Shown here piece after piece: positions 5,961 to 59,592 of a stretch of DNA of 64,000 nucleotides. The first letter of the stretch is position 1. Each line of letters begins with the position of its first letter. Source of the DNA: Schmidtea polychroa. Its lineage: Eukaryota. The translations under genes and the position numbers were made by a program. The notes beneath the pieces were generated by a model. It had not been told where the DNA came from and did no database searches. It saw only the letters and a program-made list of their open reading frames with translations. Location of the stretch: positions 27,468,001 to 27,532,000 of the forward strand of contig CM097885.1 of assembly GCA_044892525.1 (NCBI GenBank), given 5' to 3'.

Positions 5961-7202
5961 TATACAACAGTAGAATGAGCCACTTTGAATGACTTCGCCG
6001 ACGAGGGAGTATTGGAACACAGTTCAAACAATAAACCTGCTCGCCAGCGAAACCTTTCTCTGAGGCTAACGAAAATGAAAAAACATAAGCGAATTACAAT
6101 AATTCAGCTTAAATAAGGTTATAATTAAATCATGCGCCATGACACGAATAATTAGATAATAATTTTGAATTGGTAAAACAACAAAATTTGTTTTCATCCC
6201 CAATTTTTGATAAAAATTAAAATTAAAGATCCGAGTGTTATAGATGGTATAAGACAACCACAGGCAGAATACGAATTTCAGGACCTAATTTTTTTGGTTA
6301 TTGAATGATGTTGTGATAAAAGTATTACTAAGAAATTTCCTTTTAATCTTGATTTAGTTTGAAGTTATATGGTAATAAGAATTTAATCCCAAATTACTAT
6401 TTGAAATTTTCGTTATTAATTTACTGTTTAACTTACGACACGAAACTTATTTACAATTTGACTACAACTAATTATTCGACCTACCATTTTACGACCTAGC
6501 CGAACGAGTATTTATAAAAGATGAAGCGTTGAGCTAAGAGACAAAATTGAAATAACCATTATCGTTAACTATACTTATCTAATAACAGAATGTCTCAATC
6601 AAGCTGTCACGACGAGGAAGAATCATACCGACAGACTATTACTCGGCTCCGAACCAGATACATTGGGTTCAAGATCCATGACTGGAACTGAGGTCTGGAT
6701 CTGGATAATTATGGTTCAGTCATACGGAGTGGCCCCGAGCCCGATGCCCCGGCGTTGGTGAAAGTAGAACCGAAGAACAATCTGTTACAGGAGGCCCGCG
6801 ACCGAGCGGCCATGGAATTGGAGGCAGCCCAAGCGCGGCTGAGGTTTATACACGAGAGGTTTATACACGACACCCTCAAAGATCAGTGTGAGGAGTTAAA
6901 ATTAAAATACTAAATTAAATTAGTTCATGATTAAAATTTGTAAAATTTTAATTGAAACTTAAATTATTTTAAGATATTAAAATTGAAATGATAATTGAAA
7001 TTTTAAAATAAAATAATTTTTAATAAAATTGAAATTCAAGTATGAATGCGATGGTATGTTGATATTTGGTTGAAATTAAAATTTAGAAAATGTCCCAAGA
7101 ATATTTGTTTATATAATCAGATTTAATGAAATATAATTTTGGATTTAATAGTCTTAGTAATTTATTTTGATGACAGAAGAATTAAATGTTATAGCTTCTA
7201 AC

Positions 7203-8288
7203 ATGGCGACCATTCCAACGGATCTGCTTATTGGAAGATTACTTCCAGAAAAATTCCACAGAGGAGGTGACCTCGAATTATTTATCAAAGAATGTCAGAG
7301 GTTCTTTGAAATAACGAAGACACCAGTAAAGACCCAAATGGTACTAGTTATTACACTTCTGGACAGGACTTTGATTGATGAATATGAAACCGCAGAAGGT
7401 AAAACCGTTGAACAGAAATTAAGAGCAGCTTTTCATCGACCAACGTCATTGATTGATGACTTAAGAGAAGCCTTGAACTACGAGCAAGGTAACGAATCAG
7501 CGGAAATATTTATAGAGAAAATATCAAAAATGACTAAAAAATTGGCCTCACACACTTGGAATGAGGAAGAAATTCAGAAATGTTTATTGACACATTGTGT
7601 AAAAGATAAAGAAGTCAGGAAAGAAATCGAAATGAAAGATCTCAAAACGGCGGAACAAATTAAAGAAACTATAAAGAAGATAGAAAAAGTTAACAAGGTT
7701 ATTGAACAAGTAAACACGGTGAGATCAATACGACCTACAACTGGGGGAAGAACTTATAGAGATGTAGTACAAGTTGGAGCCACGAAGAGAAAAATCAACG
7801 AATGGAAACCAGAGACAAGAATTAAAGTGATAGAATGCTGGACGTGTCAAAAACCGGGACACAGTAGCAGAGAATGTAATATAAAAAGAAGATTTCAATG
7901 TTATGCATGTGGTGTTGAAGGTCACATACGAAGAGAATGCCCAACAATCAAATGTCATAGATGCAATGCACGAGGACACAAAGAAAGAGAGTGCTACACA
8001 AATATGGAAAGACGAAATCAAGGAAGAGATCGAGACCAAAGGAAGATGTCAGGAGGAAGAATTCAAAGAAATACCTATCAACAAAGGGAAGATATGTATC
8101 AATCAAGGAACGTACATCAAAGACAATGGGGAAACCAACAATATAACAGAAAAGATATTGCAGCTATCGAGTCTGATGATGAGATGATGAATACAAAACA
8201 GTCAAGCCAGCCAGACGAGTATAACAGGGAGAATGACCCAAACGAGCACGCTCCGTCAAACGGGACATTGATCGGAGCAATTTACTAA
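7203..8288 (+). CDS. gag: Gypsy Gag with three CCHC zinc knuckles
   Basis: Open frame; CWTCQKPGHSSREC, CYACGVEGHIRREC, CHRCNARGHKEREC; first ATG at the LTR/PBS junction is 7203. Confidence 0.9.
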   Translation: MATIPTDLLIGRLLPEKFHRGGDLELFIKECQRFFEITKTPVKTQMVLVITLLDRTLIDEYETAEGKTVEQKLRAAFHRPTSLIDDLREALNYEQGNESAEIFIEKISKMTKKLASHTWNEEEIQKCLLTHCVKDKEVRKEIEMKDLKTAEQIKETIKKIEKVNKVIEQVNTVRSIRPTTGGRTYRDVVQVGATKRKINEWKPETRIKVIECWTCQKPGHSSRECNIKRRFQCYACGVEGHIRRECPTIKCHRCNARGHKERECYTNMERRNQGRDRDQRKMSGGRIQRNTYQQREDMYQSRNVHQRQWGNQQYNRKDIAAIESDDEMMNTKQSSQPDEYNRENDPNEHAPSNGTLIGAIY

Positions 8289-8311
8289 GTAATATTGATT
8301 TCAACCAAAGA

Positions 8312-11300
8312 ATGAATGCTAACGGTATGTGTAATTTAAGTATGTATGATGATTGTATGATTGATAAAGATTGTAGTGTTTTTGAACGTGATATTAATAA
8401 TAATAGTAGTGTAGAAATCAAAAAGTCGAATGATAAGGAAATTCAGAAAAAATTTAAAGAGGAGTGTAAAGTAAATGAATTAGTAAAACACGAGGAAAGA
8501 ACTATAGAGAAAATTTACAAATTCCTCAAGAAAAATGGAGACGTGTGTATTAATGAAATTGTAGAAGATACTAGAGAGCAGAATATTTTGTCAGTAGAAG
8601 AACAAAAAGGTCCGGTGATAACATATAATATAATGCAAGGTAGACCGAGTACAACACTGGATATCCAAGGGCGGAAAGTAGATTGTTTATTGGATACAGG
8701 AGCGCGAATTAATGTGATGGCTAAATCTGTAATTGATCGATTAGAAAATATCGAAATATTAGAAACAAGGGAATCGCTAAGATGTGCAAACAACAGTAGA
8801 TTAGAAACTATGGGTAAAATAAACATCAATGTTAAAATGGGCAGTTATTGAAAGAAATGTAACATTCATTATAGTAAAGAATTTAATACCAGAAATTATT
8901 GGAGGAGTAGAACTACAAAGGTTATTTGGTATAGAATTGAAATGTATACTAGAAGAACATGAAAAACGTAGTGATTTCATTTGCGAAATAGAAGCTAGAT
9001 TTGGGCAGATTATAACAGATGAAGAAAGATTACGTCATGCCATCGACGTTTTAAAGGTTACCGGAAATAAGAGACTGTTAGAAATATTTCAGGCAAACAA
9101 GAATGTTTTTATGGCAGATAAATGGGACATTGGGTGTACCAATCTGATAAAACATAAGATCATCACGAAAGGAGAGCCAATAATGATTAAACCGAGACGT
9201 CAGCCAATAAATTTGGAAGACAAGATTGAGGAAGCAATAAAAAATCTAGAAAACAACGGAATAATTAGGAAGTGTAATTCACCGTGGAACACACCTTTAG
9301 TTTGTGTATGGAAGAAAGAGATAAAAGACATCAGGCTTTGTCTAGACTTCAGACAATTAAACAAGATAACAGAAAGACAAGCATTTCCAATGCCAAATGT
9401 AGATGAAATTTTAGACATCCTACACGGATCCAGATATTTTAGCTCAATCGACTTAGGAAATGCTTATTACCAAGTGAAGTTAGATAAAGAATCTCAAGAG
9501 AAAACAGCATTCTCAACAAAAGAAGGACAGTTCTGTTTTAACAGGATGCCGTTCGGTATTGCAGCGGCACCAGGAACATTTCAAGAATTAATGACGAAAG
9601 TATTGAAAGATTTGTGGAAAGATGGAGTGATGGTATATTTAGACGACATCCTAATATTCACAAAGACAGAAGAAGACCATTATAACATATTTGAAAAAGT
9701 CCTAGGGAAGATCGCAACAGCAGGACTAAGATTGAACCCCGAAAAATGTCAAATATTTAGAAAAGAAGTGAAGTTTCTGGGACACATAATAAATAAAGAC
9801 GGCATACAAACAGATAATACTAAGATAGAAGCAATACAATCATTTCAAAAGCCAAAATGTGTAAAGAATCTGAGGAGCTTTCTGGGTATCTGTAACTATT
9901 ATCGACGGTTCATAAAAGACTATGCAAAGAAGGCAAGAGCACTAGAAAGCATATGCGGAAAAAACAATGAGAAAATAAGATGGACAGAGATGTGTGAAAA
10001 GGCTTTCGGGGAAATGAAAGAAGCATTGATAACCGCCCCAGTATTGGTATTTCCAGATTTCAGAAAAGAATTTATATTAGACACAGACGCGAGCTTCGAT
10101 ACTATTGGAGCAGTTCTTTCGCAAAAGGATGAAAAAGGACATGAACATGTCATTGCATATGGTTCACATGCGATGAGCAGCCACGAAAAAGGATACTGCA
10201 TTACCAGAAAAGAATTATTGGCAATATACTATTTTTGTAAACATTTCAACCATTACTTATATGGTAAGAGATTCGTACTGAGAACGGACCATAAAGCTAT
10301 TACGTTTATGGTAACAACGAAGAAACCAATAACTGCTCAATTCCAGACATGGATCAACTATTTAAGCAGCCTGGATATTAAAATGGAATACAGGAAAGGA
10401 ACAAGCCATACAAACGCGGATATGCTATCCAGGAAAACATGCGGAACATGTGTACAGTGTATGATGGAACACGAAGACCCAAAAACCGGCAAAATTAAAA
10501 CCAGAATATTAACAGTAACAGCAGAAGGCGGATATAACAAGTGGCAAAATGACAATATGGAGGTCCAAGAAATAAAGAATAAGTTAGAAAATAAAGATTG
10601 TAAGTTCATAATGGAAAACAACACGGTACTAACTAAGCAAGGTAAAATATGGATACCGTCAGATAATAGACAGAGGATGATAAAAGAAGTACACGTATTA
10701 CTGTGCCATGCAGGTGCATAGAAAGTAACGAAATATATCCAAAATAACTGCGACATGGAAAATTTAGCAACGGAAGTAAAAAAGGTAATTGAGAACTGCG
10801 AAAGATGTCAGAAAATGAAAACGATAACAACCAAGACAAAGGAGGAAACTCAAAGAATAAAGAGTACAGAACCATTCGAGAAGATATATATGGATATATG
10901 TGGGCCATTGAAAGAAACGTTCAACAAAAAGAAATATATTTGCGGAATCATTGACCACTATAGTAAATACATCTCATTAACGGCCATAAACAAGCAAGAC
11001 GAAAAAACAATTAGTGAGACGTTATTAAATAAATGGATATTAAAGTTTGGAGCTCCAAAAGAACTTCATGTAGATTGTGGGAAGAACTTTGAAGCAAGAA
11101 GTATAAAAGAACTAGCAAAGGCAGCTGGCATTGAATTAATTTTCTCAAGCCCATATCACCATAACACGAATGGTATTATTGAAAGACAATTCAGAACAAT
11201 CAGAGAGTATATTAACGCGTCATTGAATGAAGGAGGAAGGAAAAACTGGGCTGATATAGTGCCAGAAATAGAATATACTTTAAATGCAACAGTTCAAAAA

Positions 11301-11657
11301 ACAACGGGAGTAAGCCCAGCAGAGATTATATTTGGGAGGAAAATCGACAGAATGAAATGGTACTCGAATAAAGAAATAAATAGAGAAGATATGGAAAAGA
11401 GAATAGAGGATAAAACACTAAAACCAAAAATAAGCAAAACAGTGAGAGATTTTGAAATGGAAGATTTGGTTTTGATCAAACAAGAAATTCGAAATAAAGA
11501 CGATGCAAGGTGGGAAGGGCCGTACAAAGTGATAAAGAAAATACATGAACGGAGCTACTTACTTAAAGATCAAAATGGGAAGATGGTAGTCAGAAATGTT
11601 GAGAAGATCAAACATTTTAAAAAAGGGGGATGTGAGGAGTTAAAATTAAAATACTAA
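8312..11657 (+). pseudogene. pol: Gypsy pol (PR-RT-RH-INT) with one frameshift and one nonsense codon
   Basis: LLDTGA protease; frameshift near 8830-8850; YLDD RT; LDTDAS RNase H; TAG at 10719-10721 inside the integrase HHCC region; DDE core (MDICG, VDCG, IER) and EGPY in 10755..11657. Confidence 0.92.
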
Positions 11658-12265
11658 ATTAAATTAGTTCATGATTAAAATTTGTAAAATTTTAATTGAA
11701 ACTTAAATTATTTTAAGATATTAAAATTGAAATGATAATTGAAATTTTAAAATAAAATAATTTTTATTAAAATTGAAATTCAAGTATGAATGCGATGGTA
11801 TGTTGATATTTGGTTGAAATTAAAATTTAGAAAATGTCCCAAGAATATTTGTTTATATAATCAGATTTAATGAAATATAATTTTGGATTTAATAGTCTTA
11901 GTAATTTATTTTGATGACAGAAGAATTAAATGTTATAGCTTCTAACAATCAGATTCGCCCATTACCCGTGGAACTGGCCGAGATCTACCCACCGGCACAA
12001 TCGAGTAAGCCCAAACGCAAGCGGCTAGGGCGAAATACCCGAGAAAATCTGAAAAGAGTCTGGCTATCGGAACAAGAGAAGTTAAGAAAACCCGGGTCAA
12101 CTCCAGCATCCCGATCACGATTGAATACATGGATTCTAATGTAGTGATACACATACTGTCAAGACTTGTGATAATTGAATAAATAGTTTAAACAATCTAA
12201 TGTGCATGAGGGTGAGTCTTGTGATCGTTGAAGACAACGAAGGTGTTTGAGAAAACAATTTCGGT

Positions 12266-12496
12266 AAGGGACCTGAGTAAATCGGACACATGCCTTCTAA
12301 CGTAGTCCGTGGACCCATAGAGTACTCGACAATTATAGTGCCGTTAGCGCGCTCACTTTTTGCGAGTACTCACCCACTTGATACAGTACCAACGTTGATT
12401 ACTCAACGGGTATCAAACCGTAAATAATGTTGCATCTTGGGGTTACGCTGGTAACAGCACTGAAGGATAGATATTTGATCACCAGTAACCCACCAT
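12266..12496 (+). ncRNA. Candidate structured RNA, copy A (four hairpins)
   Basis: Conserved with 46287-46516; stems cggac/gtccg, gagtactcg/cgagtactc, ttgatac/gtatcaa enclosing cgttga/tcaacg, gggtta-ctggt/accag-taaccc; compensatory and G-U differences between copies. Confidence 0.55.
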
Positions 12497-43700: not shown

Positions 43701-45061
43701 TAAATAATTATTTCATAAAAATAAAATTATAAAACAAATTATTGATCTTGGGATTCCCCTATCTCTAAATTTAGTTCAGTGGCCCTATCTTCCAATAAAA
43801 GTGCGGAAACTCACTAAATTCTATTTTTAGTAACACCCCCCCCCCGGAAAACGACCTCTATATTACTAATGGGGGAATATATATGTATATATGGATAATA
43901 TAAGTGTGTGTGTGTGTGTGTGAAGATACAAGTATACATGCGTGATTCTGGATATATTCCCATAAATCTACCAAATAGCTGTCCGGATCTCAATGCGGTA
44001 TCATGACCACAACCCTTTGTGGTAATAGTATGAGGAGAAATAATTTACTGAAACAATTTATTAAAATAATTTACTAATTTATTAAAGTTATTAAATTTAT
44101 TTCAAACCCAAATCAAAGGAAGTCTAAATTTATTAATCTCTAAAATTCTGACAAAATTATCAAATCGAAGGACGAGGAGCTTGATGGTGAACTACGTTTG
44201 TTGATCCAGTCGCCCTGTATGTTTGCATCATGGTTTCTTCGAATCATATTCATGCCAAAGTCCTGTGGGCACAGGTGAGGAAATGTATCCCCTGGGGTGG
44301 GAGGGCCTCTGGGTGGTTCCTTCGGTTTTTTTTATTGGTTCAGCGATTTTAGTGTTGTTTTGATGTGATAATGTTGGATAGCCGACTATACTTCTTGTGT
44401 CTCTTATACGTAATCATTGTCAGGTAAATCCACCAGGACGATTAGTGGGTGGAACCAACCTTGGGATGACCGGGCCATCACACCTCATTGAATTGTGGTA
44501 AGCTTGATTGCTGAGCGAGTCTTCGAGTTTTCTCGTTGGTGCTGTCAGGCAGTCCTTGCTCAGGCTGGATGTCGTGGTAGGTTGTTGGTCAGTGGTGATT
44601 GTTGTGGGAGTGCGGCCGACTACTGATATTACTGAAATGTAATTAAAAAATTTACGATATCAACATTTAATATTTTCAGTTGTTTATCTTATCATAGCAA
44701 AATTAACCAAAAGTACAAATTGATTCAAAATTCATTATTTATCATTAATTATAATTATATCAACAAAACAACGAAAAAATTTAGATACTGTTAAATGACT
44801 ATAACAAAACAAAAAGTACTAAAAATCAAGGTTCCATGGCTTTATTCAAATTATTAGTTACCAAATTTTTTCTATTAGATAAAAATTTTTTTTGTCTTCT
44901 TAATTTAATTGATTGAAAATTATCGCCAAGTTAAATTCAATCTTCGTGTTAAAAGCACTTAACTTACTTACAGTAACTTATTATTTAGTTGAGATATTTT
45001 ATCATAACTTCAATTTGTAAGTCATTGGTTGGGAACAGGTTTTAACATTTGTACTGCAGAC

Positions 45062-46117
45062 ATGTCACAATCAAGCGACCACAGTGAAGAAGAGGACCAA
45101 CATATGATCACTCGACTCCGTACCCGGTACATTTGGTACCACATCCATCGGTGGAGTCAGGGACGGGATCTGGATAGCACTAATCGAGTTATCTGAAGTG
45201 GCCCCGAACCAGATGCCCCGGCGTGGGTGAAGATAGAACCGGCAAACAATGTACTCCAGGAGGCCCGTGATCAAGCGGCTGGTGCCGTAGAGGCCACCCA
45301 GGTGCGACTCAAGAAGATCGAGTTGCAAATCAGAGCAGAAAGGGAGGGAGTGCCCCTGGAGGAGCTAGAGGAGGCCGAAGCACCCCCACGAAAGAGAGGG
45401 AGGCCCCGCAAATGCCGATGGTGATCAAGGACTGACTCTTGACTTACTATAATCAACTCCTTTTCATTGTTTATATTGTGATGAATAATCAAAAACTGGT
45501 TGAGGATCATATTTTACTCCTTTTAATAAATTATCTTCTGAATAAATTGTCTATTTAATATCTAAAAGTATTGTTATGCATGATATTGATCTTATTATAT
45601 TGAATGAGTGGAATGCTGCAAGAAGGTAATCATTGTATTTTTTCTAGTGTTCAAACTATGTGAAAATCTACAAAGGGACAGAGAAGAAGCCCAAAAACAG
45701 GCCGAGGAGCTCCGCGTACGAGTGGACCAGCTCAAAGGGCGGTGCCGGAAACTCGAGGGCACCTGGTTTAGTCCCGAAACAATGAAGAAGAAAACAGCCC
45801 AGATCCTCCAGCTGCAAACACAGGCCGCCCAGGATCAAATGGAAATTCGTGCCCTAAAACTGCAGGTACGCGCGCTCGAAACCAAACGGAATGAACAGTT
45901 GGTGCAGGAGGCCGTGGCAAGACAAATACGGCCACTGGCCGTTGAACTCGCAACAATATATTCCCCGGCCGCTGAAAATAAGCCCAAAAGAAAACGGCTC
46001 GGACGGAATATTCGTGAAAAATTAAAGAAAGCTAGGCTGGCCGAATACGAGCGGCAACCAAATTCATCACAAGCGTCTACGACGGGGTTGGCCAGCTCTA
46101 CCAACAAGTCGATTTGA
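45062..46117 (+). pseudogene. Copy B of unknown coiled-coil protein gene with AT-hook and basic motif
   Basis: ATG 45062, one in-frame TGA (Arg codon in copy A), AT-hook PRKRGRPRK, AT-rich intron-like spacer, then coiled-coil segment and KPKRKRLGR; homologous to copy A. Confidence 0.65.
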
Positions 46118-46286
46118 ACTTCTTTCTGTCTTGTATATTTTGTAGTGTGTGTCGTATATTTTTGTAGCATCAAAATAAATTTTGTTAAAATAATTCATAT
46201 GTTGTAGTAGTAAAATAATTTCAACTATATTTTATGATTGCCTGAGAAATGGGAGTTTGTGCGTAAGGTTGGGAAAACAATTTTAA

Positions 46287-46516
46287 TAAGGGACCTGAGA
46301 AATTGGACATACACCTTTTAACGGTAGTCCGTGAACCCATAGAGTACTCGACAATTATAGTGCCTTAATGCACTCACTTTTTGCGAGTACTCAACCCTTG
46401 GTACAGTACCAACGTTGATTACTCAACGGGTACCAAGTGGAAACGTAATGTTGTATTCTGGGTTACACTGGTAACAGCATTAACTAACAAACCTTCAACC
46501 ACCAGTAACCCACCAT
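46287..46516 (+). ncRNA. Candidate structured RNA, copy B (four hairpins)
   Basis: Same stems as 12266-12496 with cttggtac/gtaccaag, agtgc/gcact and tggac/gtccg variants. Confidence 0.55.
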
Positions 46517-47088
46517 TACTATGAAGTCCGAATACAAAAGCGATGATAAATTGTGTGGATTTGTGCGATGTTTAACAGCACTCGCACATGTCCCAGTTGA
46601 TGATGATGGTGAATCATTCGACTTGCTAGCTAAACGGATGCATAAACACGAAAAAAGATGAACCGACCGTGGATCAAGAGTTCATGGATGAATCTTCCGT
46701 GAATGAAAAGTTTGCATGCCATTCTGGTTTACGTTGGAAACAGCATAAGGGATATAATGATGGTCATCTGTAACCCACCAATGATATATTGAGAATAGTG
46801 AAGGTATTGATAAATGACAAAGAATTCACATCCGACCATACATTCTCTGCGAACTAGTGACATCCAGATTTTTTTGAGTTAAATTAGATTTATTTTTTCT
46901 AAAATTATTTTATTTTAAGTACATACACACCCATGATTTGTTATTTTAAACCTTAGTTGTTAACATGAATTTAATTGATTATTTCAAACAATCAAATTAT
47001 TAAATAATTTTATTTTTATTTTATTGTGGCCTTTCATTAGCGATTTTAATAAGAATTTTTCATAATTCTTATTTAATTATTTTTTATT

Positions 47089-47678
47089 ATTTTTCGAGCC
47101 ACTACATTCCTAATTTATCTGATTACGGTTTTTGTATGAAAATACAACCAATAATCATTCTTCATTTTTGATATTTTTAATTCGCTCTTTCATTTACTAT
47201 TCTCATTCTTTTGAGTCCACAGGTTTTTCGAATGCGTTGTTTCTCACTTAACTATATCATTGTAACTAATTGCGTTTATCAATTTTATTATACTTGTTTA
47301 TTTATCCTCAATGTGTTGTGTACTTTACTTTGTACTGTTTTATGTATAATCATATATTTTGATTCGATTTGGTGCAGTTTCCTTGCTATATATTTACAAC
47401 GCATTTTCGGCTCTAGCCCAACAAAATGGTTAGATTGTTGTTATATTGACGTGGGATTTTGGATTTCCTTTGAATTGGGTTTTCATTTTCTGTCTTTTGA
47501 GTCAATGTTGATAGGACATTTATTTGATCACGTACTGTAATGCTTAATTTGGGCGAATGTCTCGATGGCCCTGTTCTTGTATTTCAACACTACAACTATA
47601 CCAAGTTTCAGTCCAATAGTTGCATAACAGAAATCGTAATGATGTAGCACAACATAAAATGAAAAGGTTATATGCCAA
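47089..47678. repeat. Left copy of ~590-bp direct repeat flanking the Polinton
   Basis: Near-identical to 60757-61342; ends exactly at the agtagt terminus. Confidence 0.92.
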
Positions 47679-48572: not shown

Positions 48573-48842
48573 CTAGCCCACTGCGCTATCTTGCTTTGGA
48601 TTTTTGTCATTTTTACAACTATAAATAATCGATTCAAGTTCTTTAACTCTTTCCTGTAATTGTTTCATTTTCTTTAACCTTATCTCAGCAACTTCTACAG
48701 CTTTCATGTAAAAATGTCGATACTTTTCATTCTCTACCATCAACTCTTTGATGTATTCTAATGGTTCTTCTTCTCTTCTTTTCATTCTCTTATGTTTAAC
48801 TTCATTCAATTCATTTCTCATTCTTTCAATTAAGTCAGTCAT
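48573..48842 (-). CDS. Small coiled-coil protein of the Polinton, unknown function
   Basis: 89-aa charged helical ORF with aaaATG context, divergent from the capsid gene. Confidence 0.55.
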   Translation of the reverse strand: MTDLIERMRNELNEVKHKRMKRREEEPLEYIKELMVENEKYRHFYMKAVEVAEIRLKKMKQLQERVKELESIIYSCKNDKNPKQDSAVG

Positions 48843-48889
48843 TTTATAAATATTTTTTTTATTGGATATATTAATTTTAATATATAAAA

Positions 48890-50176
48890 ATGAATAATAT
48901 AAAAATTCAAGAAAAAAATAAATTAAATCTTGATTATAATAAAGAATTTACTCATGAAATCAAGAAAAATGATGTACTTAAAATATCCCCAACTTCAGGA
49001 TCTATAGCAAACTTAAATCGTAGGGGTGATATAGTTTTTCAATCTCTTCAAACATCAAACCCAATAGATATTTGTAATGCCAAATTATATTATAAAATTG
49101 AATTAGAAATTGAAGCAAACAAAGATATAACCCTAGAAAATAATTTCTTTCCAAATTTATTCTCCAACATGAGATTAAAACTAGGATCATCAGAAATTGT
49201 AACTGTTTTACATCCAGGAGTATATTCTACAATGTTAAATTTTATTTTGACTGGTTGTGATTATAAAAATGAATATGGTAAATTAACAGGTTGGATTCCT
49301 GATGTTAATAAAGGGGATTTAGATAAAGATGGTTTAGATATAAATTATGCTTACTATAAAAGAGCTGAACTTTATAAATCTAAAAAATTTGAAGGTTATT
49401 TTGAATTAAAACACTTGTTTGGATTCCTTCAAAACTATAATCGTATACTTCATAATGTTTTTATAGAATTAGTTTGTAATAGAGTAGAAGGTGATAAAAG
49501 ATTGTTCTATGGAGATAAGGATACAACAGCTAAATTAAAAATATCAACACTTGAATTGCATATACCTGAATGGCCATTAAATCCACATTCTGAAATCAAA
49601 CTCCTTGAAAGATTAAATTCCAACAAGTCTATAAATGTAAATTATTTAAATAGAATCTGTAGTGAATTTAGTATGACAGAGGGTTCAACATATTCTATAA
49701 AGGTAGCAAATTTAGCATACCGACCAAGATATATCTTGATTGGATTCAAAGAAGTAGATTCATCTTTCCAAAAAAATAACAACCTATTTATTCAAAAGAT
49801 TGAAAATGATAATTTAAAAACAATCCAAATTCAATTAAATAGTTCTTATTATCCAATAAATAGAATGGAATTTAATATTGAAAATAATGAAAACATATTC
49901 CCATATCTAAATTATATTGGAACATGTTATGATTTCAAAGTTGAACCACAATTAAGTTTAGAAGATTTCAAAAATTTATATTCTATATTTTGTATAAATG
50001 TATCAGATCAAGATGATAGATTAGCCATAAATAATGTTGATGTTACACTTCATGTAACAAAGGATTCTAATTTCAAAGCTAAAGTATATACATTAATATT
50101 AGAAGAAAAGAAAATAGAAATGAAATTATATGGTGGAAAGATTTCAATTATTGAAAATGTTAGGGGAGATTCTTAA
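48890..50176 (+). CDS. Major capsid protein (double jelly-roll, Polinton PY/hexon-like)
   Basis: Intact 428 aa, beta-rich; NNFFPNLFSNMRL, PRYILIGF, YSIFCINVS motifs; genomic context. Confidence 0.8.
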   Translation: MNNIKIQEKNKLNLDYNKEFTHEIKKNDVLKISPTSGSIANLNRRGDIVFQSLQTSNPIDICNAKLYYKIELEIEANKDITLENNFFPNLFSNMRLKLGSSEIVTVLHPGVYSTMLNFILTGCDYKNEYGKLTGWIPDVNKGDLDKDGLDINYAYYKRAELYKSKKFEGYFELKHLFGFLQNYNRILHNVFIELVCNRVEGDKRLFYGDKDTTAKLKISTLELHIPEWPLNPHSEIKLLERLNSNKSINVNYLNRICSEFSMTEGSTYSIKVANLAYRPRYILIGFKEVDSSFQKNNNLFIQKIENDNLKTIQIQLNSSYYPINRMEFNIENNENIFPYLNYIGTCYDFKVEPQLSLEDFKNLYSIFCINVSDQDDRLAINNVDVTLHVTKDSNFKAKVYTLILEEKKIEMKLYGGKISIIENVRGDS

Positions 50177-50193
50177 TATTTTAACATTTTAAA

Positions 50194-51633
50194 ATGTCTC
50201 TAAATAAACCGTATTGGAGATGTGAAACTTGTAATTGTCAAGTTACAAAATATCACAAAGCAAATCATTTAAAAACTAAAAAACACATACTTGGATCAAA
50301 TACTAATTCTTGGTTAGAACCCAATCCTTCAAGTAGATTTGCTTTTGAGAATCAACTCTTTGAAGGAGGTGATCTACAATCTTCAAAAACAACATCTTCA
50401 ATATTAAAACCTTTTACTACAGAAAAATATCCAGGTGAAAGACATTTATTTAAACACAACTATACCGGACCAGGAACAAGATTAGATATTAGATTAGATG
50501 AAAATAATAATCCTAAACAAGGAGAAGAACCAATAAATAGAATTGATCAAGCAGCTTTAAAACATGATATTGCTTACAATTCAACAAATCTTAGAGATAG
50601 ACATGTTGCAGATGTGAATTTAATACATGATTTAAATAATATACAAAATCCATCAACTCAAGAAAAGATTCAAAAAGCTCTAGTTAAATTAGCAATGAAA
50701 GGTAAGATTTTCATAGGCTTAGGACTTCCCCCTAGGAAAGCAAAAGATGTTGCTAATAAAAAGATTATTGAACAAGCAGACGCTGAAAGATCCCTCGAGA
50801 ATATATCCAAGACTAGTTTACAAACCCCAACAGAATCACAAATAAAATATGCCAACGAATTACACCATGAATTTAGAAAAAATAAAAAATATTTAAAAGT
50901 TCAAGTACATGAAAAAGATCAAACATGGTCTGCAGATTTAGTCTTTATGCCAACCAAATCATCAGACCCTGAAAAATATAAAATAATTTTAACTGTAATA
51001 GATTTATATACAAGATTTGCTTTTGCAAGGTGTTTAGAAAATAAAACAGGATATTCTATTACAGAAGCATTTGAAAATATATTTGAACAACATCAAAGAA
51101 TTCCAAAATATTTATGGTGTGATAAAGGAACAGAATTTTATAACAAAGTTTTTACAAAGTTTTTAAATGAAAATGATATTAAATTATATTCAACAGAAAA
51201 CGAAGGAAAAGCAGTCGTAGTTGAAAGATTAAATAGAACATTAAAAAATAAAATGTGGAAATATTTTACTGCTATTGGAAAACAAAAATGGAACAATGAA
51301 TTGTTACAAAAGATTGTAAATGAATATAATAATGATGTACATAGTTCTATAAAATCAACACCTTTAAATGCTTCCTTGAATCCTTTGGAACTCATAAATC
51401 CTGTTGAAAATGATGTTATTGAAAAACCAAAGTTTAAAATTGGTGACCGAGTAAGAATATTTAAATATAAAAATAAATTTGAAAAAGGATTCACAGCAAA
51501 ATGGACAAATGAAATTTTTATTATAAATAAAATACATTATACAACTCCAATAACATATAGCATCATTGATTTAAATAATGAAAAAATATTAGGTAGATTT
51601 TATAATAATGAACTACAGAAAACAGATTTCTAA
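50194..51633 (+). CDS. Zinc finger + parvovirus-type phospholipase A2 + retroviral-type integrase fusion
   Basis: CETC..H..H; NYTGPG...IDQAALKHDIAY; WSADL, WCDKGTEF, VVERLNRTLK (DDE); FKIGDRVRI C-terminal domain; one open frame of 479 aa. Confidence 0.9.
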   Translation: MSLNKPYWRCETCNCQVTKYHKANHLKTKKHILGSNTNSWLEPNPSSRFAFENQLFEGGDLQSSKTTSSILKPFTTEKYPGERHLFKHNYTGPGTRLDIRLDENNNPKQGEEPINRIDQAALKHDIAYNSTNLRDRHVADVNLIHDLNNIQNPSTQEKIQKALVKLAMKGKIFIGLGLPPRKAKDVANKKIIEQADAERSLENISKTSLQTPTESQIKYANELHHEFRKNKKYLKVQVHEKDQTWSADLVFMPTKSSDPEKYKIILTVIDLYTRFAFARCLENKTGYSITEAFENIFEQHQRIPKYLWCDKGTEFYNKVFTKFLNENDIKLYSTENEGKAVVVERLNRTLKNKMWKYFTAIGKQKWNNELLQKIVNEYNNDVHSSIKSTPLNASLNPLELINPVENDVIEKPKFKIGDRVRIFKYKNKFEKGFTAKWTNEIFIINKIHYTTPITYSIIDLNNEKILGRFYNNELQKTDF

Positions 51634-52418
51634 AACAAACTTTTCCATATTTCAGCTTCTTCTCTATCCAAATAAATATAATTATATTTTTCTTTCCAAT
51701 GATTATCAACAAACATATCAAACATATTCTTATCAGGTTCAACATTTGAAAATAAATCATTATAAATCATATTCTTATCACGGCGATCTAATTTAAAAAA
51801 TATAAAACAATTAGAATTATTTCTTATTGAATTTTTATCTAAAGCATAATAAGTTTGAGATATATAAATAACATTACAATTATTATGTCTTCCTCTTGTA
51901 AAGTAACTCTTTTGAATCTCTTGATTTTTCATATTAACAACATCATCAAATATAACTAGAATCTTTTTATCTTTAGGAAGTAAATCACAATGTTAAACAT
52001 CTTCAGGTTTATTAGAGAATAAAACTTGAATCCCCTGCCCCTCTTCACAAATATAATCATTTTTATTACTAATATCTGATTCTAAAATCTTTTCCTTATA
52101 CCAATCAACCATATCACAAGGTTGAAAAACTTCTTCAGGACATCTATGTTGATTTTTAAAAATATCAATTATTGCTTTTTTAGTTAATTTATTTGCAAAT
52201 CCACATTTCAAAAGTTGTAATTCTGGTTGATTTATAGTTGTAGAGTAAAAGATTAAATTATTATAATCTAAAAAACCATCTTCAAGCAACATTTTCAAAA
52301 CAAGTACATTCTTTCCACATCCAGAAGAACCAACAATTAATAATCTAAAATTATCAGGAAATACTTTATTATTAAATTTAGATTTATGTCTATTTAAAAT
52401 TGGTTTCCAAATATCCAT
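51630..52418 (-). pseudogene. A32/FtsK-like DNA packaging ATPase with one in-frame stop
   Basis: Walker A GSSGCGK; TAA at 51993-51995; read-through gives Walker B LVIFDD, then RGRHNNCNVIYISQ. Confidence 0.9.
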
Positions 52419-52433
52419 TTTATTTATTTAAAA

Positions 52434-53027
52434 ATGACAACTGAAGAATCTTTGCAAGAATTAATAAATTCAAATAAAAATAAATCAGTAGTAATTGATG
52501 GTAAAAAATATTTTATTGGAAAACATGTAAAAGAACAAGTTAGAGCGAAGATTAAAGAAGGTGGCATTCTTCCATTAGCTGCTTTAATACCTGCAATCAT
52601 TGCCGGACTATCAGGTGCTGCTGAAATAGCTGGAGGAATCGCAACTACAGTTCAAAAAGCTAAAGAATTTCAAAAGACAGACCTAGAAAAAGAAAAATTA
52701 CAAACTGAAATCGATTCAATAAAAAAGAAGGGACTGTCCGAAGGTCAAAATTCCGTTGGAAAAGGTCTCTATCTTAATCCATATCAGAAAGTGTCCGAAG
52801 GTCAAAAGTCTCAGGGGAGTTCCTTCGTTGGAAAGGGTCTCTATCTTGATCCTTATAAAGGCCGCGGTTTAAATGATTTTTTAAAAAATCAAATTTCATC
52901 ATCTGAATCTTTATCTTCAAAAGATAAAGATGATTTAAAAAAAATGTGTAAATCTTTAAAGAATGGATGCCTTTGTAAAACTAAAAATGGTAAAGGATTA
53001 TATTTAAAATCTTGGAAGGAACCATGA
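52434..53027 (+). CDS. Putative virion core/membrane-active precursor protein
   Basis: EGG followed by hydrophobic ILPLAALIPAIIAGL; repeated GKGLYL motifs; 197 aa. Confidence 0.6.
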   Translation: MTTEESLQELINSNKNKSVVIDGKKYFIGKHVKEQVRAKIKEGGILPLAALIPAIIAGLSGAAEIAGGIATTVQKAKEFQKTDLEKEKLQTEIDSIKKKGLSEGQNSVGKGLYLNPYQKVSEGQKSQGSSFVGKGLYLDPYKGRGLNDFLKNQISSSESLSSKDKDDLKKMCKSLKNGCLCKTKNGKGLYLKSWKEP

Positions 53028-53049
53028 TACCATTTTTGATACCATTAAA

Positions 53050-53916
53050 ATGGTATATGAAGAAAGATTAGCACTTTTAAAAAAATTACAATCAGAACAA
53101 AACAAGTATAATAAAAAAGATACAACTCAACATGCTGAATCTATAATATTAAATGAGGTAATCCAAAAACAACAACGACCAACAATTAAAGCTATAAAAG
53201 GATTAAATGAGCAAGCAAAATTTAAAGAGTTGGAAGATAAAAAACAAAAAATAAAAGAATTGGAGTGGGAGAAAGAATCCACTGAAAATCATCCTGAAAG
53301 TCATTCTGAAAGAAATCAAAGAAAACGTAGAAGAACCTCTAATGTGGAAGAAGAAGAAATGTTTTTAAAAACAAAACCTCTTAAAGTTAATCCTAAAATT
53401 AGAGAAGGTTTAAGTGATTCAATTAAACCCACATTTCATATTAATTCTGAAGGATATTCAATAATAACAATTAATAAACAAAACTTTACTTTATATACAA
53501 CTCCAGAAAATAAATCACATATTCATTCACAAAATGTTTATAATAATGAATATTTAGACTTTGAATTTACAGATGATTTTTATAGATTACTTTGTGGATA
53601 TCCTTCAGATGATGTTGAAGAAATTAAAAAATATTTAAATTTTATAAGATCAATAAAAGCTAGTTCAAAAGCAAAACACATTCAAGATTTAAAGAAATAT
53701 TTAGATAGAAATGAAAAGGGTTATGTTGTTAAAGAAGGTGATGGTATAAGGGTTAAATCAAACCCAATCAACCTTTTTATTGAATTAAGAAAACTATTAG
53801 CAGCTAAAAAAGCAGGTCATAATAATTTAGATTCTGATATTTTAAAGATTTCTAAAGATTTGTTAAAACAAGGAATAATTTCAAAAGATAAATTTAATAA
53901 ATATACGAAGTTATAA
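53050..53916 (+). CDS. Polinton protein of unknown function
   Basis: Intact 288 aa; NLS-like RKRRR; C-terminal LLAAKKAGHNN helical motif; tightly packed with neighbours. Confidence 0.7.
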   Translation: MVYEERLALLKKLQSEQNKYNKKDTTQHAESIILNEVIQKQQRPTIKAIKGLNEQAKFKELEDKKQKIKELEWEKESTENHPESHSERNQRKRRRTSNVEEEEMFLKTKPLKVNPKIREGLSDSIKPTFHINSEGYSIITINKQNFTLYTTPENKSHIHSQNVYNNEYLDFEFTDDFYRLLCGYPSDDVEEIKKYLNFIRSIKASSKAKHIQDLKKYLDRNEKGYVVKEGDGIRVKSNPINLFIELRKLLAAKKAGHNNLDSDILKISKDLLKQGIISKDKFNKYTKL

Positions 53917-53938
53917 ATACAAAGTTATAAAATATAAA

Positions 53939-54403
53939 ATGACTAATCCTTCAATATTAGATTTTTTAAAAACATTTGGAATAAATGCAAAAACAAATTT
54001 TGATTTAAAAGATTATGCAAATTATTTAAATTTAAAAATAAAAATATTAATGAATGATGAATTATCAAGTCTGAAAGATATTCTGAAAGAAGACACTCAA
54101 AAGAAACGAAGTCCCCTGAATATTATTATAAATTATCAAAATTCAAATGAGAAAGGATCTCATTGGGTTTGTATATATAATAAATCTATATACTTTGATT
54201 CTTTTGGGATTAAACCTACTAAAGAAGTTGAAGACTATCTCTCGAGGGGTTCCACTTTTAATTCTTTACAAGTTCAACCTAATAATACTAAAATATGTGG
54301 TATTATAAGTTTATATGTTTTGTATAGAATGAATAAATCCAAAGGAGAAGGTTTCACTTCCTTAATCCAAGAAATTTATAATGATTTAAAATCTCTATTA
54401 TGA
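53939..54403 (+). CDS. Adenain/Ulp1-like cysteine maturation protease
   Basis: GSHWVC, YFDSFG and QVQ....CG catalytic motifs. Confidence 0.9.
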   Translation: MTNPSILDFLKTFGINAKTNFDLKDYANYLNLKIKILMNDELSSLKDILKEDTQKKRSPLNIIINYQNSNEKGSHWVCIYNKSIYFDSFGIKPTKEVEDYLSRGSTFNSLQVQPNNTKICGIISLYVLYRMNKSKGEGFTSLIQEIYNDLKSLL

Positions 54404-55170
54404 AAATGGAGCTTCGCAACCTTCTGGAAGATAATTTTAAAAAAATGGTAAACATAATGTCAGATAAATATTCAAAAACTTTATCTATAAATTCAAAAGA
54501 ATCAGACTTTACTATAAACTTTCAAGATTCAATAAAATTAGATCAAGATTTAAATTATGAATTAGGTCTATTATGGTTTTGTGTTTATAATACTATTTTT
54601 AATATAACTAAAGATAATAACATATTTTATTATATAAGCCCAAAATCTACAGATAAGATTATAATAACAATCGAACCTGGGGCTTATGAGATAAAAGATT
54701 TAAATAATATACTTTCTAAAAGAACAAATGGAGCCATTAAAATTAAAATGGATTTACCAACTTCAAAATGTATAATGACTTTAGAGAATATAGGAATTCA
54801 TTTTCAAAATAATAGTTTCTTTAGAACAATTTTAGGATTTACACGAAACCATTATATCACACCTATAGTTGAGAATATAACATCAGAAAATATTATAAAA
54901 ATAATAAATACAAACACAATAAATATTCATTGTGATTGTATAACAGGTTCTTATAATAATAGTAAACAAACAAATGTTTTATATTCCTTTCCCTCAAACA
55001 CAGTTCCTATGGGATATAAAATAGTTGAAAGAATGAATCCTCCAAATTATTTGCTTTTATGTAGAAAATATATAATGGATATTAATTTTAAAATTCTTAA
55101 CCAAGAAGGAGAATTGATTGATTTTAATGGAGAAGAGATTTCAATGTATTTACATCTGAAACAGGTTTGA
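54400..55170 (+). CDS. Minor capsid protein (penton-like, Polinton PX)
   Basis: 256 aa; PGAYEI, ILGF, INIHCDCITGSY, IDFNGE motifs; follows the protease. Confidence 0.8.
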   Translation: MKMELRNLLEDNFKKMVNIMSDKYSKTLSINSKESDFTINFQDSIKLDQDLNYELGLLWFCVYNTIFNITKDNNIFYYISPKSTDKIIITIEPGAYEIKDLNNILSKRTNGAIKIKMDLPTSKCIMTLENIGIHFQNNSFFRTILGFTRNHYITPIVENITSENIIKIINTNTINIHCDCITGSYNNSKQTNVLYSFPSNTVPMGYKIVERMNPPNYLLLCRKYIMDINFKILNQEGELIDFNGEEISMYLHLKQV

Positions 55171-55652
55171 AGATTCATTTTAAATTATTAATAAATGAGT
55201 TCTTATATTCCTTGTAATAGAGGTGGTGGAACAATAAAAACAGGGTTTAATACAGAAGAAATATTAACTTTAACAGAAAATAAATATATTAATGAAAGAG
55301 GTGATTCAATGAAAGGAGATTTAAATTTAAATGGACACAAGATAAAAGATTTATCTTTACCAACTGATGAAGGTGATGCTGCTAATAAAAAATATGTAGA
55401 TGGTGTTAAAAATTATACTGATTTAACAACAACAAGAATTGAAAGTTCATTAACAACAAAAATTGATACCTTGATAGAATCCAAAGTTAATTCTTTGATG
55501 GAATCCAAGCTTAATAATATCGAACAACGATTTAATGATAAATTTGACAAGTTACAAAGTCTGTTAACTGAACAAGTTGTAAAGTTAAATACTAGTATAT
55601 TAAACTCTAAAGATAAACAAATTATGAATACTAAATTTAATACAATATATAA

Positions 55653-58306
55653 CAGGGCTGGCAAAAGCGTCGACCGCGGTCGACTAGTCGACCGCGTAGC
55701 TATCGAAAGTAGCCCGCTAGCACTATGGAAAATTGCATATAAAAATCAGTTTTTTATTTATTGAATTTCTAACTTTATAAACATATTTAAAATAAGTTTC
55801 GATTCATATGACAAAAAAATTCCAATAAGAAACATAATATTAGTCAGATAACACTCAGAGTGTAGTAAATTTTTAGTTTGAAATTCAAATATATACAGTT
55901 AGCTAATAATCAGAATAAATTTCATGTGTTTGAACAAGTAGGTCATAAAATAAAAGCAAAACATTGACGCTACAATCTTCGATAAGGAATAAAAAAATAA
56001 AAAACAACCAAAATAAAATACAACAAACGTGTGTTTGTCTATTTCAATTTTGAAATCAAATTGTTTTCGTTAGAAAAATTTGAAAGCTTGAAGTATTCAG
56101 TATTGAATAATACCTGCTTATAATATTAATTTCAAAATTTTTTTATTAAAAAAAATTCTTTATAAAAGTTAACATTTTTAATTTTTGAGTATGTAAGTGT
56201 GTTTAACATTAATTTTCATATTTAATTTATTTTAGCTTTTATTATTTTCTTGTTTTAGCCCCAATGACACAACGGGCCAAAAAAACTAAAACGTACCATT
56301 ATAATACTGAATGGGAACAGGAATTTTTTTTCATAATGATGAAAGATAAGTGTGTTTGTCTCATTTGTAATTCAAACGTAGCACTACCTAAAAGAGCTAA
56401 CGTTGAACGACATTTTCGAACAGTGCACAAACAGTATGAAATTGACTTTCCATTACATTACGAGGTACGAAAAGACAAAGTCAAGCAGTTAAAGTCTCAA
56501 TTAGGTGCACAACAAACTTTTTTTACGAAATTTAACTCAAAATCAAAAACAGCTACCCTAGCATCATTCAAGGTAGTTAATATTTTGATGAAACATAAAA
56601 AACCTTTTGGAGATGGCGAAATATGGAAACAGGCGTTTGTTGAAGCTGGTGAGGTGTTATTCAAAGATTTTAAAAATAAATCCGAAATAATGGATTGTAT
56701 CAACAATATGTCATTGACGCGCAATACTAGCACGCAAAGAATGGTGGACATTAGCAAAAACTTGGAAGATATTTTGCGGCAAGATATTCGAAAATGCCGC
56801 TTTTTCTCTTTGCAATTTGATGAATCTACAGATTTCACTGATACTGCGCAACTATGCATCTTCATTCGAATGGTTTTTGATGATATGTCAACCAGAGAAG
56901 AATTATTGACTATTCTTCCAATGAAAGGACAAACAAGGGGTCAAGATATTTACAATTTATTCAAGTCTTTTATAAGTCGCACCCATTTCCCGATTCACAA
57001 GTTGGTATCAATTACCACGGATGGAGCTCCGTCTATGATCGGAAAACATGTCGGATTTGTAACACTTTGCAAAAAAGATGAAGAAATTCCCAGTTTTCAT
57101 TCGTATCATTGCATTATCCACCAGCAAACCTTATGCTCCAAAGTGTTGAACTCTAACTATGTAATGAATATTGCGTTTAAAATAGTAAATTCGATACGTG
57201 CAAGAAGTCTACAACGACGTCAATTTCGAACTTTGCTTGAACAATGTCAAATTGAAAATACTGAATTATTGTTACACACGGATGTAAGATGGCTTAGCCG
57301 TGCAGCATTTTTAAAACGATTTAGAGATCTTTTGCCCGGAATAAAACAGTTTTTGACTGGAAGAGAAGAATTATATCCCGAACTGGAGGATAAAAGTTGG
57401 CTGATAAATCTTGCTTTTCTTTGCTACATTACAGAGCACCTGAATAAATTAAATTTACAGCTTCAGGGGAGACACAAATCAATTCTTGACATGATAACGG
57501 CAGTAAAGACGTTTAAAGAGAAACTGTCCTTGTTTGTGCCTCAACTAGAACGGGGTGATTTGAAACATTTAAAAAACATGGAAGAAGAATCCAAAAATGC
57601 GCCAGGAATTCTTTAGGATAAATATACAAATCAAATTACTACCCTTTTAAATGAATTTAACACACGTTTCGCAGATTTATCTAAAATTGCAAATATTTCT
57701 ATGTTCATGTCATTCCCGTTTAATGATGTTATTGATACAGAGGAGATCGCTACTCAGATTAATGAATTTCTGGATTCAGATTCAGCTTGCTTAGAAGATG
57801 AGATAATAGCGTTGAAAAGCGACATTTACTTAAAATCAAGAGCTACAACCGAAGATAATTTTTGGAATCTTATTTCAGAAGAAAAATATCCAATTTTGCG
57901 GAGAGTAATTGGATATATGTCCGCATTTTTTGGATCCACCTATCTTTGTGAATCAGCCTTTTCTTCAATGAATGTCATTAAAACAAAACATCGATCTTGT
58001 TTGACAGATGATCATTTGGAATCATGCTTGCGGATCGCCATAAGCTCCTATTGCCCGAAATACGAAGAACTTGCTGATAAGATGCAGTGCCACGTATCAG
58101 GTGCAAGTAGTAGCAGTAAATAATATTATATTAAGATATGTTTACGTTCTAGTAAAGTATTATAAGTTTTTTTCTAATTCGTTTTGTATTTAAATAGAAT
58201 AAATAGAATAACTACAGGTAACAATTGAAAATAGTTTTTCTGGTAGACCGCCAGATTTAATTTAGTTAAAAGTCGCCCGCAAGACTTGAAAGTTTTGCCA
58301 CCCCTG
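55653..58306 (+). mobile_element. Full-length hAT (Buster/Charlie, GTF2IRD2-like) transposon
   Basis: TIRs cagggctggcaaaa/ttttgccacccctg; perfect 8-bp TSD atatataa (55645-55652, 58307-58314). Confidence 0.95.
56264..58123 (+). pseudogene. hAT transposase with a single in-frame stop
   Basis: CLIC..RHF zinc finger, DESTD, TTDGAPSM, HCIIH, VRWLS, STYLCESAFS; TAG at 57614-57616; both ORFs share one frame. Confidence 0.93.
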
Positions 58307-58902
58307 ATATATAATATAATAAATGAGATGATTACATCATTTAATAAAAGACTTTCAAATTTAGAGTCTCATACAACACACATTAATACCACACATAGTA
58401 TTAGAAAAGGAGCTGCTGAATTAGAACAGAATAAAACATTATTACCCCATACATATAAACATTTTATAGAACCAACTTTAATAACAACAAATAGTAAAGA
58501 ATGGAGTGTTTTTATGGTTGTAAAGATTATTGATCCTTATTTCTTTTTATTTGATGATGATAATGAAAGAATGAAATGGTTTGTGAAATGTGATTATAAT
58601 AGTAAGCTTGAAAAGGGTGATGTTATAATTACTGCTTATGATTTACCACACGGAGATTGGTATGTTAATACTCATTCACATGGACTACATAAAGTTAAAA
58701 GTAAGAATATTATTTTTAAAAGCATACTTGTACAATATATAGATTTAATATTTTATGAAAAAAAGGTTGATGTTGATGAAGTTCGTAAAGCATTGATGGA
58801 ATTGTATAAAGATATTCTCTCAACAAGAGTTTCTTTTGATATCCGAGTATTGGTGCCAGATGGTGCTCAGAAGAATAAAGTCTTATTTTTTTAATTATTA
58901 AA

Positions 58903-59481: not shown

Positions 59482-59592
59482 AATTATAAATATATAAAAT
59501 GGATGCATTTTTAAAAAAAGTAGATCAGGTTGCTATAGTTGCTTAAATTAATTGTCGACATTTTATTATTAAAAAATTAAATATCGTTGTTT

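Follow-up and report, generated by a model that had tools for sequence, protein, structure and literature searches.

A conserved folded block at the right end of an abundant flatworm mobile family in Schmidtea polychroa

Conserved folded ends on mobile elements are already known as a kind of thing. R2-type non-LTR retrotransposons have a structured 3' UTR of about 250 nt and short internally deleted derivatives. Penelope-like elements show 5' truncation, partial tandems, kept introns and an optional coiled-coil ORF1, and the Naiads among them are described as having no hammerhead and very high copy numbers (PMC8557442). In the Mauriceville and Varkud retroplasmids of Neurospora, the reverse transcriptase (RT) starts cDNA at a 3' tRNA-like structure with a 3' CCA (10.1101/792986). 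Animal retrozymes are defined by a hammerhead, have no ORFs and are thought to be moved by Penelope-like elements (10.64898/2026.07.22.740005).

Here we describe a repeat unit from a 64,000-nt stretch of Schmidtea polychroa DNA (GCA_044892525.1, contig CM097885.1, positions 27,468,001 to 27,532,000 of the forward strand; hereafter the window), in which two ORFs are linked to a folded block present in copies that we call A, B and C. Penelope-like elements offer the closest overall pattern (PMC8557442, PMC6431247). As in Athena/Terminons and Naiads, the unit has coiled-coil and basic accessory ORFs and a possible kept intron (PMC6431247, PMC8557442), together with a conserved folded 3' end and a truncated copy that may stand in partial tandem. 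Unlike Penelope-like elements, it has no RT, no GIY-YIG and no hammerhead; it is also set apart by its one TAACCC word in place of a run of reverse telomeric repeats, and by the roughly 200 nt of unrelated DNA that separate C from B. The closing 7-bp stem and A-CCA recall the retroplasmids, which however are circular mitochondrial DNAs encoding an RT, whereas the flatworm unit is a nuclear interspersed repeat without one (10.1101/792986); nor does the block have the T-loop or cloverleaf of the retroplasmid tag.

Other comparisons are partial in the same manner. The flatworm host, the short high-copy unit, the CA end and a possible 4-bp duplication are features that the unit has in common with the taeniid ta-TRIM/lennie (PMC4558846) and the planarian Gypsy element Burro (PMC6431247), but unlike TRIMs and solo LTRs it has no paired LTRs, no primer-binding site and two orphan ORFs under selection. 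It is small, high-copy, structured and non-autonomous like the animal retrozymes, and unlike them lacks a hammerhead and contains ORFs. Size, 3' position, fold conservation and internally deleted copies agree with R2-type 3' UTRs, whereas the upstream ORFs encode neither an RT nor a restriction-like endonuclease, and no target-site specificity is evident. As there is no RT and no hammerhead in the unit, we do not file it under Penelope-like elements or retroplasmids. None of the terminal patterns that we tested, whether LTR, poly(A), hammerhead, inverted repeat or Helitron, suits the family, and we cannot assign to any known family an element that joins orphan ORFs, one basic and one coiled-coil, to a fold that lacks a ribozyme and ends in ACCA. 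We found no paper describing the element; the repeat libraries Repbase and Dfam lay outside the search, and it may be catalogued there as an unclassified repeat.

Conservation and fold of the block

The block is a real, strongly conserved, folded stretch of about 250 nt (Table 1). Self-comparison of the window (blastn) aligns A and B at 82.9% identity over 252 columns (E 4e-63), which bears out the second copy reported in a preliminary description of this locus; that match spans 46269-46516, so the conserved block begins about 18 nt to the left of its earlier limit at 46287. A profile built from A and B and run over the 64-kb window (nhmmer) finds a third copy of the module, C (E 2.7e-5), and A, B and C are the sole block copies in the window. 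Nothing to the left of the last module is retained in C, which lies 265 nt from the corresponding module of B. The right end at GTAACCCACCA is common to all three copies (3/3), and this motif occurs three times in the window against 0.27 expected. Its recurrence at 46770 had been noticed before and is confirmed: the whole last module matches there.

Table 1. Features of the repeat unit and its copies, in window coordinates
Feature	Coordinates	Strand	Remarks
Upstream part of repeat unit in B	44187..45061	.	GC-richer island (~44160-44630) and AT-rich spacer
ORF1 of B	45062..45424	+	120 codons; Arg-rich start, end RKRGRPRK; in-frame stop at codon 45
ORF2 of B	45604..46117	+	long helices, then basic KPKRKRLGRN; open frame 45650-46114
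Structured block, copy B	46269..46516	+	right end of repeat unit; starts 18 nt left of 46287
Hairpin 1, YGGAC/GTCCG stem	46304..46331	+	U-G in B, C-G in A
Hairpin 2	46342..46392	+	9-bp stem, two palindromic GAGTACTC words; inner AGTGC/GCRCT stem
Hairpin 3	46398..46436	+	TTGRTAC/GTAYCAA stem enclosing CGTTGA-TTAC-TCAACG
Terminal module	46460..46515	+	GGGTTAC, small hairpin (GNRA-type loop), ~26 variable nt, GTAACCC, A-CCA
Copy C, truncated diverged terminal module	46720..46780	+	GTAACCCACCA end kept; one mismatch in 7-bp stem
Copy A, gene 5' half (start of ORF1)	6590..6886	+	in-frame stop at codon 34
Insertion in gene A: unrelated LTR retrotransposon of Ty3/Gypsy type	6887..11947	+	
Copy A, gene 3' half (end of ORF2)	11948..12144	+	from sequence comparison with B
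Structured block, copy A	12247..12496	+	from blastn and profile matches

Identity between A and B is 83% in the block with gaps counted and 85% ungapped, as against 55% and 61% in the coding tail, 34% and 48% in the spacer from the stop codon to the block, and 28% and 44% downstream. The intervening 3' region has diverged, as the preliminary description stated, and the block stands at 83% against 28-55% in its flanks. Third codon positions are only 54% identical in ORF1 and 33% in the ORF2 tail, and within the block substitutions avoid the stems; the proposal of selection on the structure is upheld by both comparisons. Spacing is the same in the two copies inside the block, but the claim of equal spacing fails outside it, where 173 nt separate the stop codon from GGGACC in B, against 124 nt in A. 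The AATAAA reported in both copies is present between the ORF2 stop and the block (46174-46179 in B, 12178 in A), a weak signal in AT-rich DNA. The inner ~26 nt of the terminal module vary freely among the aligned copies.

Folding was scored against dinucleotide shuffles. Plus-strand RNA of B (46287-46516) gives z -3.7 and that of A (12266-12496) z -2.1, both better than the shuffled controls, and the minus strands give -2.4 and -1.2. Windows of 261 nt reach -2.6 (B) and -2.3 (A), the cores -6.0 and -5.3; the upstream flank gives +1.05, the downstream flank -1.95, the ORF segments about 0 and copy C alone -0.4. Folded as DNA, the block reaches -2.4 to -4.0 (B -2.9/-4.0) and the core -4.4 to -7.4, values similar enough to those for RNA that energy cannot separate RNA from single-stranded DNA. 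Alifold energies are likewise nearly equal by strand (-55.8 and -54.8).

Seven helices can be drawn in both copies, with 85 of 86 cells pairing. Columns that differ between A and B make up 5 of 86 paired and 34 of 144 unpaired positions (Fisher p 4e-4), in a structure that was itself drawn from A and B. Of the four changed pairs one is compensatory, two become G-U on the plus strand and one is broken, and covariation between the copies is not significant (241 of 500 shuffles reach the same level). Two elements pair firmly in A and B alike (probabilities 0.88-1.0), namely hairpin 2 and the inner stem of hairpin 3. Hairpin 2 stands at 0.99-1.0 in A and B, its outer stem invariant and its inner stem U-A in one and U-G in the other; the inner stem of hairpin 3 stands at 0.89-0.94. 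Firm pairing is confined to a single copy or a single window for hairpin 1 (0.08-0.66 in B, 0.24-0.71 in A) and likewise for the outer stem of hairpin 3 (0.75-0.84 in B, 0.08-0.11 in A). The sole compensatory pair, G-C in B and A-U in A, lies in that outer stem. The TTAC loop of hairpin 3 reads GUAA on the minus strand, so an argument from GNRA loops is not strand-specific.

Folds compete in the last 60 nt. The GGGTTAC/GTAACCC stem has a probability of 0.19-0.88 in B and 0.10-0.97 in A, and the small hairpin that it encloses one of 0.96 in A and 0.02 in B. The 7-bp stem followed by A-CCA is a possible acceptor-like end, judged from its sequence: a 7-bp stem, a discriminator base and CCA are the shape of a tRNA acceptor end. 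This stem is invariant in A and B and therefore gains no support from covariation. It competes with the taatgttg/cagcatta helix, which had been described as completely paired in B. That helix can indeed be written there (46446-46453 with 46475-46482, one G-U), but another fold is favoured over it. Within B its probability ranges over 0.06-0.58 with the choice of window and drops to 0.00 when just the last 77 nt are folded; for A the value is 0.00.

Reading frames and extent of the repeat unit

What had been called a single coiled-coil gene upstream of the block proves in B to be two ORFs separated by an AT-rich spacer. ORF1 is 59% identical in amino acids between A and B, with differences by codon position of 21/22/40 over 87 codons (third positions 40/83, p 0.004), and ends in a motif that we take to be AT-hook-like. 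ORF2, of about 165 codons, is modelled from its single sequence by AlphaFold2 with helices at residues 2-37, 42-104 and 111-135 (mean pLDDT 82, pTM 0.37); 28 of 40 residues in its tail are identical to A, and differences by codon position are 10/7/27 (third 27/44). The concentration of differences at third positions shows purifying selection on both ORFs during the divergence of A and B. A candidate 22-nt GT-AG phase-1 intron (45626-45647) could join an upstream ATG to ORF2; no spliced joint for it appears among the contig rows shown. The ORF1 starts (45052-45064 and 6581-6592) have a CAG within 2 nt upstream, after a pyrimidine- or AT-rich run, which by its sequence resembles a splice acceptor, either of a 5' UTR intron or of a spliced-leader site. 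In copy A the start of ORF1 is fused to the end of ORF2, leaving an internally deleted gene. The Gypsy-type element inserted there is near-complete, with 317-bp LTRs 99.7% alike and a 5-bp target duplication, ATCAG; frame changes, together with a stop at 10719-10721, break up its pol.

Neither ORF has a match in Pfam. No relatives of either were found among 5.8 and 1.84 billion proteins, and at near lengths none of 89 candidates for ORF2 (protein search) and none of 875 for ORF1 (alignment search) was confirmed. Exact protein look-up returned 0/7, and none of 61 viral stretches was confirmed as an ORF relative. Two matches in a representative protein search (E 1.5e-4 and 5.8e-4) were rejected, both being internally repetitive.

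The unit is highly repeated. Of the sequence words sampled, about half occur in four runs of a single study. Across 43900-47200 (3.3 kb), 1,701 and 1,691 contigs match at 80% likeness in two DNA runs, which come from one study, possibly the source of the window, and are not independent; more than one third of them (608 and 654) are less than 90% alike. Contigs pile up on the block, thin out leftwards and drop abruptly rightwards, and single block sites varied in up to 48-51 contigs. Summed contig depth, which is not copy number and cannot rank the parts of the gene, is 196,353 and 297,523 at 46342-46452. It ranges from 1,100 to 45,000 in the ORFs and spacers, from 250 to 8,200 at 44011-45120 and from 58 to 474 at 46564-47007; in this last stretch a single identical contig has a depth of 22 or 57. 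In run X1 the sum falls from 26,152 to 110 across 46563/46564. As a rough inference, copies number in the hundreds to thousands. The unit ends near 46516, and the block is the right end of an abundant flatworm mobile family.

The upstream part is common to fewer copies. It has no counterpart upstream of A, its A/B similarity does not rise above shuffles, and three minus-strand stretches of it have no Pfam match. Overlapping contigs cover 44187-44372, 44218-44645, 44662-45022 and 44886-45129, and contigs from other copies join 45775 or 45873 directly to the block, as internal deletions would. By this bridging and these joints, the upstream part, the ORFs and the block travel together. The preliminary description had linked the block to the protein. 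Contigs of other copies do join the ORF region to the block, but the constraint is best seen as acting on a mobile element that multiplies, and a host gene followed by a 3' regulatory element is the poorer reading. Linkage of ORFs and block follows from their belonging to a single element and gives no evidence that the protein binds the structure.

Among the runs listed as sharing the sampled words, none is an RNA run. Contigs from X5 (27 records) and X7 (5), two runs whose RNA origin is a guess and which may be DNA, lie over the block and over pieces of the ORFs; they carry no information on strand, end or level. One X5 contig stops matching at 46512 and continues with TCAG as copy A does. 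It has no full ACCA, so ACCA may not be universal or the true end.

A further bias lies in the upstream part. At 44217-44592, among rows from the best 40 of 484, 20 of the 23 listed are A/G and 1 of 23 is C/T, a strand bias such as a single-stranded stage would give; at 19 of the 23 listed sites the window has G where other copies have A. The neighbours of these sites do not clearly follow the usual ADAR pattern. Strand-biased hypermutation could reflect RNA editing fixed by reverse transcription, or deamination of cDNA in the other copies, or else an assembly error.

The window as a whole is AT-rich animal DNA in which mobile elements abound. Its host sequences include a single-exon FHA-PHD gene (13622-14857), for which 14 of 15 matches are named and all of these are flatworms, the best in trematodes and cestodes (the top match, at 85%, is the one outside the named set), and a host-gene exon with G-patch and dsRNA-binding features (32484-33278). 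A second Gypsy-type element lies on the minus strand at 691-5960, with 125-bp LTRs 100% alike, AGT...ACT ends in place of TG...CA, a TATAC duplication and a small inserted repeat near 4880-4935; the stretch 5795-6047 is duplicated in inverted orientation at 19119-19371. At 48573-60777 lies a Maverick/Polinton-like gene cluster whose ORFs we take from their motifs to be capsid-, integrase-, ATPase- and polymerase-like; a hAT-like transposase sits within it (56213-58123). On both sides of the cluster is a 594-bp direct duplication, 98.5% alike (47085-47678 and 60753-61342), the right copy overlapping the start of the polymerase-like ORF. A large inverted repeat at 19456-23575, with arms of about 1.5 kb (92-99%) around short tandem units, adjoins polymerase-B-like fragments (23826-26389) and may be a Maverick end or a palindromic satellite. 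A short inverted-repeat element (CAGTGGCGTAG...CTACGCCACTG) lies downstream of copy A at 13001-13168. Flanking the unit, translated fragments at 46521-46830 and 43926-44040 are, on our assumption from motifs, Mutator-type and Tc1/mariner-type transposase-like, and neither the Mutator-(MULE-)like nor the Tc1-like reading has support in Pfam or the atlas; copy C lies within the Mutator-like fragment. The sole match of an Rfam scan of the window, to mir-753 at 18842-18904 (41 bits against a gathering value of 62, in DNA of 16% GC), is probably compositional.

Readings of the folded end

The reading that we favour, tentatively and with somewhat less than even confidence, is that the unit is a non-autonomous retroelement, abundant and unclassified, that the block forms a cis-acting signal at the 3' terminus of its RNA, and that the copying enzyme is a reverse transcriptase encoded elsewhere. 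The unit is laid out as a variable upstream part, the basic ORF1, the coiled-coil ORF2 with its basic tail, and the folded 250-nt end, and a plus-strand transcript would run through the block and end at or near ACCA. A reverse transcriptase from elsewhere, of Penelope-like or other non-LTR type, would recognise the fold and start cDNA there, and copies would keep their right end and lose their left. The small basic and coiled-coil proteins would be the element's own RNA-packaging or chaperone proteins. The block may serve the copying machinery as a handle. An RNA stage that has the block at its 3' end is indicated by the fixity of the right end, the truncation of copy C and the internal deletions, together with a fold slightly better on the plus strand and the strand bias of the transitions. 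Several findings stand against this: faster divergence would account just as well for the thinning of contigs towards the left, the acceptor-like stem is mismatched in C and ranges in probability from 0.10 to 0.97, and the DNA folds as well as the RNA. The unit contains no reverse transcriptase or endonuclease, and no poly(A) or simple-repeat tail follows any of the three ends (longest A run 1, 4 and 3 in the 40 nt past A, B and C).

A narrower version of the retroelement reading, drawn by analogy, strikes us as a long shot. The element would be a nuclear animal retroposon whose RNA ends in an acceptor stem and CCA, where a helper RT would start cDNA, and its own basic and coiled-coil proteins would bind the 250-nt fold. 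The stem with ACCA would act like the tRNA-like initiation tag of retroplasmids, and no poly(A), tRNA primer or hammerhead would be needed, as in those fungal mitochondrial plasmids.

It is also conceivable, if unlikely, that the block is the conserved end of an LTR retrotransposon, either R-U5 or a whole 250-bp LTR, in an LTR/3' region with accessory ORFs. CA would then be the integrase end, the palindromic stems would serve RNA dimerisation or packaging, and the excess blocks would be solo LTRs; the basic proteins could, by analogy, act like Rex or Rec on a response element. All three copies do end in CA, and in A a purine run and then TG precede the block (12244) as a polypurine tract would, although the run and TG lie in different registers in A and B and a TG start is not fixed. 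In B, TTAC-TG at 44045-44050 and CA-TTAC at 46514-46519 form a possible 4-bp target duplication, and 4-bp duplications are the rule for the cestode TRIM and its partner (PMC4558846); yet there is no matching duplication upstream of A, and the flanks of B, judged by eye and by motif, do not resemble one interrupted sequence. No second block lies upstream of either gene in the window, no primer-binding site is found and no TGG follows any of the three ends, and there is no terminal inverted repeat beyond TG/CA. A minus-strand primer-binding site was also considered and rejected, there being no shared LTR beside A and B, and a similarity of 44030-44165 to a Gypsy LTR is no better than shuffles.

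We give about the same low weight to a role as single-stranded DNA, in which a DNA element of rolling-circle or virus-like kind (resembling a Helitron, a parvovirus or a Maverick satellite) would have its origin or its terminus in the block, the repeated GTAC, ACCA and GAGTACTC words would be binding sites and the AT-hook-like ORF1 would bind DNA. The DNA folding scores of block and core agree with this, as do the perfect palindromes and the enrichment of short words in B (GTAC five times against 0.8 expected, ACCA five against 1.3; each three times in A), and a Maverick lies in the window. The unit itself, however, has no Rep, helicase, polymerase or Maverick core genes, and its ORFs lack the AAATG start context, whereas seven of nine neighbouring Maverick ORFs checked read AAATG or TTATG. 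No CTRR lies within 30 nt of any end, there is no AGTAGT end and no inverted partner at the left (block against 43950-44400, best score 20 over 10 nt), and the pair changes lean to plus-strand G-U. The DNA patterns of the block have no match in viral contigs or in metagenome contigs. A loose pattern of the last module picks up three viral loci that share only short stem words, have no tRNA and look unrelated. Two phage contigs (L002, 3001-3067; L003, 674-740) have in common a non-coding stem-loop of about 80 nt with CAGTG...CACTG flanks and a GTAACCCACCA end; it is not a tRNA (ARAGORN) and is related to the flatworm block only by short words. A telomeric reading was rejected as well: the (GTTAGGGTTAG)n run at 33988-34174 is an interstitial array of mixed TTAGGG and TTAGG units, and the block has its one TAACCC only.

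The remaining two readings are less likely than an LTR end or a DNA origin. In one, which seems to us quite doubtful, a virus-like element would carry the block either as a small non-coding RNA or as a module for self-cleavage of an unknown type or for processing by RNase P/Z. Adenovirus VA RNA, gammaherpesvirus TMERs and mascRNA would be its parallels, and the tRNA-like module would be a cutting signal present in tandem, first in B and then in C. The spacing of these two modules and the moderate fold of the stretch between them (z -1.4 to -1.95) fit such a module; that stretch, however, is low-copy by contig depth. Rfam has no family on the block, and none to E 10 except two chance snoRNA rows outside it; ARAGORN finds no cloverleaf or tRNA in the block, and no B box occurs at a place common to the copies, although one A-box-like word with one mismatch was seen. 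No catalytic core sequence or fold of the self-cleaving ribozymes sought (hammerhead, HDV-like, hairpin, twister, pistol, hatchet) was found. The hammerhead falls for want of a core, with no CUGANGA on either strand of either copy; at the loose ends of contigs, too, CAGAGA stands (in 23 and 32 of them) in place of the window's CTGAG. A loose HDV-like descriptor matches both copies, without L3, P1.1 or a shared C-R-A, and no complete HDV or hairpin ribozyme motif is present. A host gene family whose conserved 3' regulatory RNA is bound by its own product, as the preliminary description implies, is very improbable, for all the purifying selection on ORFs and block and the Arg/Lys-rich motifs in both ORFs, given the very many divergent contigs, the broken state of both copies in the window, the position of the block beyond AATAAA and the failure to find ORF relatives where the window's host gene finds flatworm relatives at once.

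The many divergent copies of the family provide the depth for a decisive covariation analysis. Were the block an LTR end or a DNA origin, it would be a useful but ordinary addition to flatworm repeat annotation. If ACCA is instead a start of reverse transcription, it would link animal retroposons to initiation of the retroplasmid type and bear on template choice by telomerase-like and Penelope-like enzymes. If the RNA of the element does end in an acceptor stem and CCA, the block would count as a nuclear 'genomic tag' still in use today, and would add a new class to the known ends of retroelements.
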